From NCBI RefSeq assembly GCF_003019035.1, contig NZ_CP027447.1: a DNA stretch of 64,000 nucleotides. One strand, given 5' to 3'. Made by a program: the position numbers and the translations under genes. The stretch is from Escherichia coli (lineage in GTDB: Bacteria > Pseudomonadota > Gammaproteobacteria > Enterobacterales > Enterobacteriaceae). The notes under the pieces are model-generated. The model worked only from the letters and a program-made list of their open reading frames with translations, made no database searches and was not told the DNA's origin. Positions 45,716 through 46,775 of this stretch are shown piece after piece (position 1 is the stretch's first letter; each line of letters begins with the position of its first letter).

Positions 45716-45757
45716 ACCCTCACAAATGAGGGCACCATACATAAGCAATAGGCATAA

Positions 45758-45800
45758 CAGATCGATGCAATAAATCCGATCGATAAAAACGATCGATTTG
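45758..45800 (+). promoter_or_regulatory. Triple-GATC regulatory region upstream of com-like gene (Mu mom-type, Dam/OxyR-like)
   Basis: GATC at 45760, 45778, 45791; shares ATCGAT(T/A)AAAACGATC(A/G)ATT with 20551-20570. Confidence 0.45.
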
Positions 45801-45832
45801 TTATCATATCGGCAGCAGTAACCACACAAGAG

Positions 45833-46039
45833 GTGCCGCAAATGACGCAAAATGTACGATGCAAAAATTGCAACAAACTACTTGCCCGCGCCTCATTTCA
45901 CTACATTGAAATAAAATGTCCGCGCTGCAAAACACTTAACCAGATAACGAGAGCCATCGAGCACCCCACACACATGAGGAGTTATGACCGTGGGGATCGC
46001 AATCCAGCACCAACCAGCACATACACCGGAACACACTAA
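45833..46039 (+). CDS. com: Com-like zinc-finger translational activator
   Basis: VRCKNCNKLLARASFHYIEIKCPRCKTLN closely resembles phage Mu Com (IRCKNCNKLL...HIEIRCPRCK). Confidence 0.8.
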   Translation: MPQMTQNVRCKNCNKLLARASFHYIEIKCPRCKTLNQITRAIEHPTHMRSYDRGDRNPAPTSTYTGTH

Positions 46040-46775
46040 GGTTTATCAGACTGACAATGCCACGCTCTGTCGTGGGAATGCGCTGGAAATATTGCCGCTG
46101 ATTGAGCCAGAAAGTATTGATGCCTTAATCACTGACCCGCCTTACAGTTCGGGCGCGACACACAAGGCCGGACGCACCAACCAGGGCAGCCACGCAAAAT
46201 ATCTGAACGGCGAGAACCTTCATCGCTTTGATGGGTTTGCGGGTGAAAACATGGATGCCCGTTCGTGGGCTTACTGGACACAATTATGGATGGCACAGGC
46301 ACACCGCGCAGTCAGGCCGGGCGGTTATGCCCTGGTATTTACTGACTGGCGACAACTGCCAGCTTTAACCGATGCGTTTCAGGCCAGCGGTTTTACATGG
46401 CGTGGAATCATTGCGTGGAACAAAGGAAGGGGGTCACGAACACCCCATACGGGGTATTTCCGGCATCAGTGCGAATACATCGTCTGGGGCAGTAAAGGCC
46501 ATTTAGGTAAATCGCCTTCGGGACCGTTCGACGGCTGCATGACGTTCCCGGTTATCCCATCAAAGAAAATGCACCCGACCGGAAAACCAGAAGAACTTAT
46601 GGCAGAACTGGTCAGGACTGCGAATAGTGGTGGAACAGTCCTTGATCCTTTTATGGGATCGGGAACAACGGGTGTTGCAGCACTGAAAGCAGGACGCAAA
46701 TTTATTGGTATAGAAACCAGTGATCATTATTTTGATGTAGCAACACAACGGCTCAAAACGGCGATCGAACCATAA
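45984..46775 (+). CDS. DNA methyltransferase, beta-class amino-MTase (N6-adenine or N4-cytosine)
   Basis: DPPY catalytic motif followed by FxGSGTT AdoMet motif; overlaps com 3' end as mom overlaps com in Mu; true start probably downstream of 45984. Confidence 0.8.
   Translation: MTVGIAIQHQPAHTPEHTKVYQTDNATLCRGNALEILPLIEPESIDALITDPPYSSGATHKAGRTNQGSHAKYLNGENLHRFDGFAGENMDARSWAYWTQLWMAQAHRAVRPGGYALVFTDWRQLPALTDAFQASGFTWRGIIAWNKGRGSRTPHTGYFRHQCEYIVWGSKGHLGKSPSGPFDGCMTFPVIPSKKMHPTGKPEELMAELVRTANSGGTVLDPFMGSGTTGVAALKAGRKFIGIETSDHYFDVATQRLKTAIEP

Follow-up and report, generated by a model that had tools for sequence, protein, structure and literature searches.

The right end of a ~36-kb P2-like prophage, located within the Escherichia coli chromosome in the 64,000-nucleotide stretch of contig NZ_CP027447.1 analysed here (hereafter the window), is closed by a short cassette in which a homologue of the phage Mu regulatory gene com overlaps a gene encoding a DNA methyltransferase. 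We consider it fairly likely that this cassette represents an expression gate of the mom-operon type that the P2-like prophage carries and that is joined to a DNA methyltransferase of the beta class, probably an N6-adenine enzyme. The elements that make up the cassette are as follows:

45748-45794 (no strand assigned): candidate OxyR-type operator with three Dam sites, based on the Mu alignment, the consensus score and the conserved triad
45780-45807 (plus strand): predicted sigma-70 promoter, with -35 TCGATA at 45780-45785, a 16-nt spacer, TG at 45799-45800 and -10 TATCAT at 45802-45807
45842-46039 (plus strand): com, encoding a 65-aa CCCC zinc finger (Cys7, 10, 26 and 29), with the same coordinates in RefSeq
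45954-45961 (plus strand): Com RNA-recognition motif CCAUCGAG, fitting CC(N)2-3GAG, within the com coding sequence and directly 5' of the hairpin
45964-45995 (plus strand): predicted translation-inhibition hairpin, with arms CCCCAC (45964-45969) and GUGGGG (45990-45995)
45990-46775 (plus strand; annotated from AUG 45984): beta-class S-adenosylmethionine-dependent DNA amino-methyltransferase, based on Pfam N6_N4_Mtase, sequence motifs, and AlphaFold and Foldseek

The product of the upstream gene matches both the Pfam family Zn_ribbon_Com (1.3e-11) and the PHROG family 'gpCom control of modification' (2e-17), and shares 60% identity with Mu Com across 42 aa, with all four zinc cysteines kept. 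The initial annotation of this DNA had drawn a com-like gene at 45833-46039, and both the relationship to Mu Com and the end at 46039 hold, while the start has to be moved. The Shine-Dalgarno sequence GAGG lies at 45830-45833 and is overlapped by the GTG at 45833, and the most likely start is the ATG at 45842, which is the RefSeq start and has normal spacing. RefSeq names this protein (WP_001353016.1, 45842-46039) a 'Com family DNA-binding transcriptional regulator', which conflicts with the literature, where Com is an RNA-binding translational activator.

The experimentally determined target of Mu Com is CC(N)2-3GAG in a hairpin loop, with GAAUGCCUGCGAGCAUCCCACGGAG as the natural site, and it adjoins a translation-inhibition hairpin whose stem holds the GUG start codon of mom (PMC6483171). 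The same arrangement, with CC(N)3GAG beside a CCCAC/GUGGG hairpin that holds a Shine-Dalgarno sequence and a GUG start, is found in the window, where the Shine-Dalgarno sequence GAGGAG (45976-45981) and an AUG (45984) lie between the hairpin arms and the GUG at 45990 is part of the 3' arm. Folding of the window RNA gave a hairpin of -16 kcal/mol (z = -2.7), and the Mu sequence gave the same two-hairpin layout. A scan of the IMG/VR database with Com returned 80 loci, which we analysed for the Com target, the hairpin and the gene that follows (the payload). In all 80 the target CC(N)2-3GAG occurs at the same position, as it does in a five-way alignment, and is followed by (C)CCCAC...GUGGG(G), the arms being invariant across loci with a methyltransferase, Mom or cytosine-methyltransferase-like payload. 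Support for the predicted hairpin thus consists of conservation and homology; none of the Rfam families includes the Com target or the hairpin, the only match being to a sok RNA located upstream. Com and payload genes share 50 nt, with the payload in the +1 frame, both in the window and in Mu.

The methyltransferase reading frame can be entered at either of two codons, since GUG 45990 is in frame with AUG 45984, two codons downstream of it, at distances of 8 nt and 2 nt from GAGGAG for the GUG and the AUG, respectively. A 73%-identical homologue (IMG/VR locus L034) has no AUG at the position of AUG 45984, and in a Salmonella cassette (L091) the frame is open back to the GUG of the GUGGGG arm, and because of these two loci we conclude that the conserved start is probably GUG 45990 within the predicted stem, as for mom. 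In the Salmonella locus (L091, 1742-2702) the called methyltransferase start lies 11 nt past the com stop, so that the genes seemingly do not overlap; this start is probably mis-called, because upstream of it the frame stays open as far as the GUG of the conserved arm.

The downstream gene had been described as a beta-class amino-methyltransferase rather than mom, and this description is confirmed. The open reading frame at 45984-46775 (RefSeq protein WP_000215758.1) is intact and matches Pfam N6_N4_Mtase in two pieces, and in BLAST comparison the payload matches the methyltransferase reference, not Mom. DPPY (residues 49-52, numbered from the GUG start), HPTGKP (195-200) and FMGSGTT (221-227) were identified, with DPPY preceding FMGSGTT, i.e. 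the beta-class motif order (IV before I), and DPPY, HPTxKP and LDPFxGSG are invariant in an alignment of 10 sequences that includes homologues down to 46% identity. The AlphaFold model has a pLDDT (predicted local distance difference test) score of 82, and the closest solved structures found with Foldseek are CcrM, M.BceJIV, M1.HpyAVI, MboIIA, RsrI and a rotifer N4-cytosine methyltransferase, at 20-26% identity. DPPY, the source annotations and most of the structural neighbors make N6-adenine the likelier target base. The family is very large (> 7000 database relatives), and its closest named phage homologue is Bpm of Bordetella phage BPP-1 (52% identity); we found no characterized close relative of the window enzyme. 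Membership in the Hia5/Hin1523 family was rejected, since Hia5 is Dam-related and the match of the window enzyme to the Dam family profile MethyltransfD12 is insignificant (E = 0.93). The M.EcoGII group was set apart by description only, M.EcoGII being a 349-aa protein encoded on a different prophage (PMC5778455).

Upstream of com, GATC sites are located at 45760, 45778 and 45791, with spacings of 18 and 13. The initial annotation had likened these three sites to those of Mu mom, and the likeness extends to exact positions, spacing and a base-by-base alignment (CAGATCGATGCAATAAATCCGATCGATAAAAACGATCGATT in the window, ACGATCGAATCAATTAAATCGATCGGTAATACAGATCGATT in Mu). Clustering of GATC by itself was discarded as a statistic, as three sites in 35 bp are ordinary in this DNA, with other such clusters within the window (the densest, six sites in 83 bp at 55439-55521, lies in host DNA outside the prophage); it is the exact spacing and the homology that are informative. 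GATC-N14-GATC-N9-GATC in exactly this form is present at a single place in the window and was not seen in 100 shuffles, while phage Mu and 27 related loci also have it upstream of com. Judged from these alignments, this block of three GATC sites and that of Mu mom are homologous, beyond mere similarity. The triad and its spacing are kept in L034 and in a Yersinia locus (L089) despite diverged flanks. We also scanned the whole window with the consensus for the OxyR tetramer that PMC2909390 cites from Toledano et al. (ATAGnTnnnAnCTAT-N7-ATAGnTnnnAnCTAT, maximum score 20). The sites at 45748 and 45757 score 15/20, the joint top of the window together with an unrelated site at 36191, while the proven OxyR-controlled regions of Mu mom and agn43 score lower in the same scan (13/20 and 14/20, respectively), which makes control of the com-methyltransferase unit by OxyR and Dam a reasonable inference. 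The ATAG that opens the first OxyR half-site is invariant in 4/4 aligned variants.

The claim of a Mu mom-style control region stands for this block but not for the promoter. The Mu promoter downstream of the GATC block is C-dependent and has a poor -35 (ACCACA), a TAAGAT -10 and, between them, a 19-bp spacer containing a T6 run. The window lacks this ~27-bp segment (the C-activator site, 19-bp spacer, T-run and TAAGAT -10), and the aligned ACCACA of the Mu -35 falls directly 5' of the com Shine-Dalgarno sequence. In its place a predicted extended -10 promoter, TGTTATCAT, lies on the GATC block itself, with GATC-II overlapping the -35 and GATC-III within the spacer. TCGATA-16-TATCAT is the sole promoter-like site that our promoter scan found in 45300-47050, and TGnTATCAT shows no variation among the E. 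coli, L034 and Yersinia variants and those (L031-L033) that have lost the GATC block. A transcript from this predicted promoter would be expected to start near 45814. An operator in this position would be expected to occlude the predicted promoter itself, with no visible tie to a phage late activator. The operator of agn43 (flu) provides a second comparison, as it shares three GATC in an OxyR site (spacing 19/13, 18/13 in the window), the CGATCG...ATCGATCGAT motifs and a similar consensus score (14/20 against 15/20), but is located downstream of the transcription start, whereas the window operator is predicted to lie over the -35 and spacer.

Taken together, the cassette shares with Mu com-mom the GATC block, the com zinc finger, the Com target with its hairpin and the overlap, as well as a location at the very right-hand end of the genome of the phage, and differs from it in the payload (here a Rossmann-fold methyltransferase, in Mu the acyltransferase-superfamily protein Mom), in the promoter and in the phage that hosts it, which is P2-like with Ogr and without the C protein. 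That com can be followed by a methyltransferase replacing mom is already known. Drozdz et al. (2012, PMC3299994) described com followed by an adenine methyltransferase (Hia5, Hin1523 and Nma1821) in Mu-like prophages of Haemophilus and Neisseria, and noted com with a methyltransferase instead of mom also for Pseudomonas phage B3. The same study placed the Hia5-type enzymes with Dam, DpnM and T4 Dam, and reported that they confer broad protection from restriction enzymes and have no detectable activity in the lysogen. These systems share with the window a com homologue followed by a DNA methyltransferase in the mom position, but they join Dam-related enzymes to a Mu-like backbone, whereas here a beta-class N6_N4_Mtase is joined to a P2-like one, and the non-specificity of Hia5-type enzymes cannot be transferred to the window enzyme by homology. 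Among P2-like phages, the genome table of Burkholderia phage KS5 (2010) lists two overlapping genes, a 'Com translational regulator' and an 'N-4/N-6 DNA methylase' that shares the Pfam domain of the window enzyme (PMC3091744), and in Stenotrophomonas phage Smp131 a com homologue overlaps a methyltransferase 48% identical to the window enzyme, with a different hairpin that also covers the ribosome-binding site. The Smp131 pair follows the portal gene and the KS5 pair lies among tail genes (late operons), while the window pair is a separate, insulated unit beside the right attachment site (attR); moreover, no GATC triad or own promoter was seen in Smp131, whereas the window has a Mu-type GATC block and the CCCAC/GUGGG hairpin. 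In tailocin clusters of Pseudomonas, Com homologues are also noted in linkage with other cargo genes (PMC4684702). Escherichia phage Chuche and E. coli RefSeq annotation, in which the two genes are labelled in about 170 complete genomes, are further records of the com-methyltransferase arrangement. In the literature that we searched, there is no account of a Mu-type three-GATC block kept in a P2-like cassette, of such a block superposed on an extended -10 promoter, or of a payload swap at the GUG junction that includes a cytosine-methyltransferase gene; these three points are refinements, not a new type of system.

The cassette is widely distributed and its payload is exchangeable. The full cassette is present in 162 of 5426 complete E. 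coli genomes (~3%), where both genes are labelled by RefSeq, and Chuche, an isolated phage, carries a complete copy annotated in the same way. The com-methyltransferase pair also occurs in Salmonella, and Yersinia kristensenii (L089) has the same layout of hok, com, methyltransferase and prophage end, while the methyltransferase family is found without com as well, e.g. in the lysis operon of a Salmonella Mu-like prophage. Across the 80 IMG/VR loci, the payload that follows the GUG is the methyltransferase of the window, Mom (two clades), or a gene that RefSeq calls a DNA cytosine methyltransferase. Near-identical com alleles are followed by Mom in some loci and by the cytosine-methyltransferase gene in others, and the sequences diverge within ~10 nt past the GUG; the mobile unit therefore comprises the control region, com and the hairpin, with its junction at the start codon. 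The loci in which com and the hairpin drive the RefSeq DNA cytosine methyltransferase (~350 aa) are L004 (E. coli AST198), L044, L053, L057 and L065-L071, and their com alleles are near-identical to Mom-linked alleles of E. coli O157 (L005). In addition, NZ_CP035755.1, a 25,421-bp record deposited as a separate replicon of E. coli E110019, carries a 96.5% identical cassette at 22205-23452, and the chromosome of that strain carries the cassette too; the element on this record could be an excised or episomal phage-derived element.

How such a cassette would operate can be proposed by combining these elements. The com-methyltransferase unit would be transcribed from its own sigma-70 promoter, the extended -10 promoter embedded in the OxyR-type operator. 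OxyR on unmethylated or hemimethylated DNA would block this promoter, and full methylation by Dam would release it. Com would then be translated first, while the methyltransferase start (GUG 45990 with its Shine-Dalgarno GAGGAG) stays locked within the hairpin, until Com binds the adjacent target, the hairpin opens and the methyltransferase is made. The enzyme would methylate phage genomes as they replicate, which would make the progeny resistant to restriction when they infect their next host, and at other times the double gate would prevent synthesis of a protein that may be harmful. Judging from mom and from the methyltransferases that stand in for it behind com (PMC3299994), modification of phage DNA for anti-restriction during lytic growth is the most likely role. 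Several observations weigh against this reading or against parts of it. With regard to the adenine target, the rotifer N4-cytosine enzyme is an equally close structural neighbor. With regard to the translational lock, the hairpin arms show no compensatory changes and hence no covariation support, and a covariation count would be uninformative because the arms are invariant in every enterobacterial locus. With regard to transcription, a Mu-type C-dependent promoter was rejected as its segment is a gap in the window alignment, and control by Ogr was rejected as well, there being no P2 late-promoter dyad TGT-N12-ACA upstream of com (the only nearby match to this pattern lies within the com coding sequence), and the predicted promoter could be on in a dam+ lysogen. 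Finally, in loci L031-L033 a 31-bp deletion has removed the whole GATC block while com and the methyltransferase are kept, and the Dam/OxyR layer is therefore dispensable there. In these IMG/VR loci (~2440-2500), the deletion apparently occurred between GATCGAT repeats, the extended -10, com and the hairpin are kept, and the methyltransferase is 95-96% identical.

The transcriptional features just described also invite other explanations. In one of these, which we hold to be rather improbable, the cassette is a phase-variable module of the lysogen, with a heritable ON state (methylated GATCs) and OFF state (OxyR-bound) that would generate subpopulations differing in methylome, restriction immunity or gene expression. 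This would combine an activator-independent promoter, a Dam/OxyR operator and a self-contained com feed-forward step, and if the enzyme methylates adenines of its own three GATCs, the ON state would lock itself in. An extended -10 promoter free of C or Ogr sites, a GATC spacing (18/13) close to that of agn43 (19/13) together with an OxyR score that is at least equal, and the insulation of the unit by hairpins on either side all fit such a switch, and PMC2909390 leaves open whether Mu mom itself phase-varies; yet prophage methyltransferases of other families are silent in lysogens (PMC5778455; PMC3299994), the positions of the Smp131 pair directly behind the portal gene and of the KS5 pair among tail genes suggest a late lytic function, and some variants that are intact in other respects have lost the GATC block. 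It is also conceivable, if unlikely, that the GATC triad acts without OxyR, through SeqA on hemimethylated sites at the passage of the replication fork or through a direct effect of methylation on promoter strength. The nature of the OxyR assignment (a 15/20 consensus match), the location of GATC-II in the predicted -35 and of GATC-III in the spacer, and the direct effect of GATC methylation reported for activity of the P22 gtr promoter (PMC2909390) speak for this; the homology to the Mu block, for which OxyR binding and methylation sensitivity are reported in the cited literature, and the invariance of ATAG in the first OxyR half-site in all four aligned variants speak against it.

The two remaining explanations concern the enzyme rather than its control. 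The notion that the cassette has become a decaying or inert passenger of the prophage, with an enzyme that is no longer active, could draw on the E. coli methylome papers that we consulted (ST131, O145, O111), in which there is no extra methylation motif attributable to such enzymes; no strain there is tied to the cassette, and RM13514 and RM13516 are absent among the 60 carriers listed. Both reading frames are intact, however, the catalytic motifs do not vary among homologues with as little as 46% identity, complete copies of the cassette occur in the 162 E. coli genomes and in the isolated phage Chuche, and the regulatory elements are conserved across genera, so that we regard decay as very doubtful. 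Still more remote, and in our judgment extremely improbable, is that the enzyme forms the methylation half of a restriction-modification or other defense system. PADLOC did match it with 'Type II methyltransferase' profiles (2e-63), but these are generic and were the only ones, Com had no PADLOC match, and no endonuclease or other defense gene adjoins the methyltransferase, whose neighbors are ogr, hok/sok, com, attR and the host gene flk. The enzyme had been called an orphan at the outset, and the absence of a restriction gene beside it agrees with that. The reading that we favor remains a gate of the mom-operon type in front of a beta-class DNA methyltransferase.

The surroundings of the cassette confirm the earlier assignment of the prophage to the P2-like group, with gpD, an ogr/Delta zinc-finger gene, 20-bp attachment (att) cores, 92% DNA identity to phage Chuche and collinearity with that phage at 88-97% identity. 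The com-methyltransferase cassette is the final transcription unit of this prophage and adjoins attR, beyond which lie the host genes flk and yfcJ. The features of the prophage ends and of the flanks of the cassette are:

10921-10940 (no strand assigned): attL core TTTTCATCAACAAGGATTTT, 20 bp, with attR as its identical copy
43716-44957: gpD, at the prophage's right end
45000-45260: ogr, 3' of gpD
45305-45462: sok RNA, Rfam match of 47 bits, which is under the gathering score of 59 (E = 6e-9)
45452-45592: hok-like open reading frame of 46 aa, PHROG 'MokW-like host killing' (2.5e-23)
45678-45705 (plus strand): terminator hairpin with T-run from the terminator scan, ending the hok/sok unit
46780-46801 (no strand assigned): G+C-rich hairpin from the terminator scan, directly 3' of the methyltransferase stop
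46884-46903 (no strand assigned): attR core TTTTCATCAACAAGGATTTT, 20 bp, with the same letters as attL

A type I toxin-antitoxin of the hok/sok type thus sits between ogr and the com cassette, and the terminator at 45678-45705 is the 5' limit of the com-methyltransferase transcription unit. The hairpin at 46780-46801 is a possible terminator at the other end, its plus-strand T-run being weak. About 25 bp upstream of GATC-I we noted a perfect palindrome, CCCTCA-CAAA-TGAGGG (45718-45733), which is kept in L031-L033, partly kept in L034 and absent in the Yersinia locus. Elsewhere in the prophage, a tail-fiber gene (32848-34353, plus strand) is followed by a tail-fiber assembly gene on the minus strand (34904-35515), by four tandem, promoterless, alternative tail-fiber C-terminal cassettes (35515-35973, 35984-36451, 36462-36890 and 36901-37464, with 299-nt repeats), and by a Gin/Pin/Cin-type invertase (~37482-38078, plus strand, MQIGYIRVSTNDQNTDLQ...). 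This region (32848-38078) looks like a multi-cassette invertible host-range switch, and would be a second Mu/P1-like module in the P2-like prophage.

With respect to the biology of these phages, the com gate appears to be a portable and self-contained safety lock, to which Mu-like, P2-like and lambdoid-context phages attach different DNA-modifying enzymes, with the swap occurring at the GUG. Such a gate would explain why a methyltransferase carried by ~3% of complete E. coli genomes is likely to be missed in routine lysogen methylomes, and the RefSeq name that misdescribes Com, an RNA-binding translational activator, calls for caution in E. coli genomics. If the specificity of the enzyme is relaxed, it could help to evade restriction barriers, although the practical interest is modest. 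The Dam/OxyR block over an activator-independent promoter is a candidate for epigenetic bistability, and the variants in which this block has been deleted (L031-L033) provide natural test material for the contribution of the Dam/OxyR layer.

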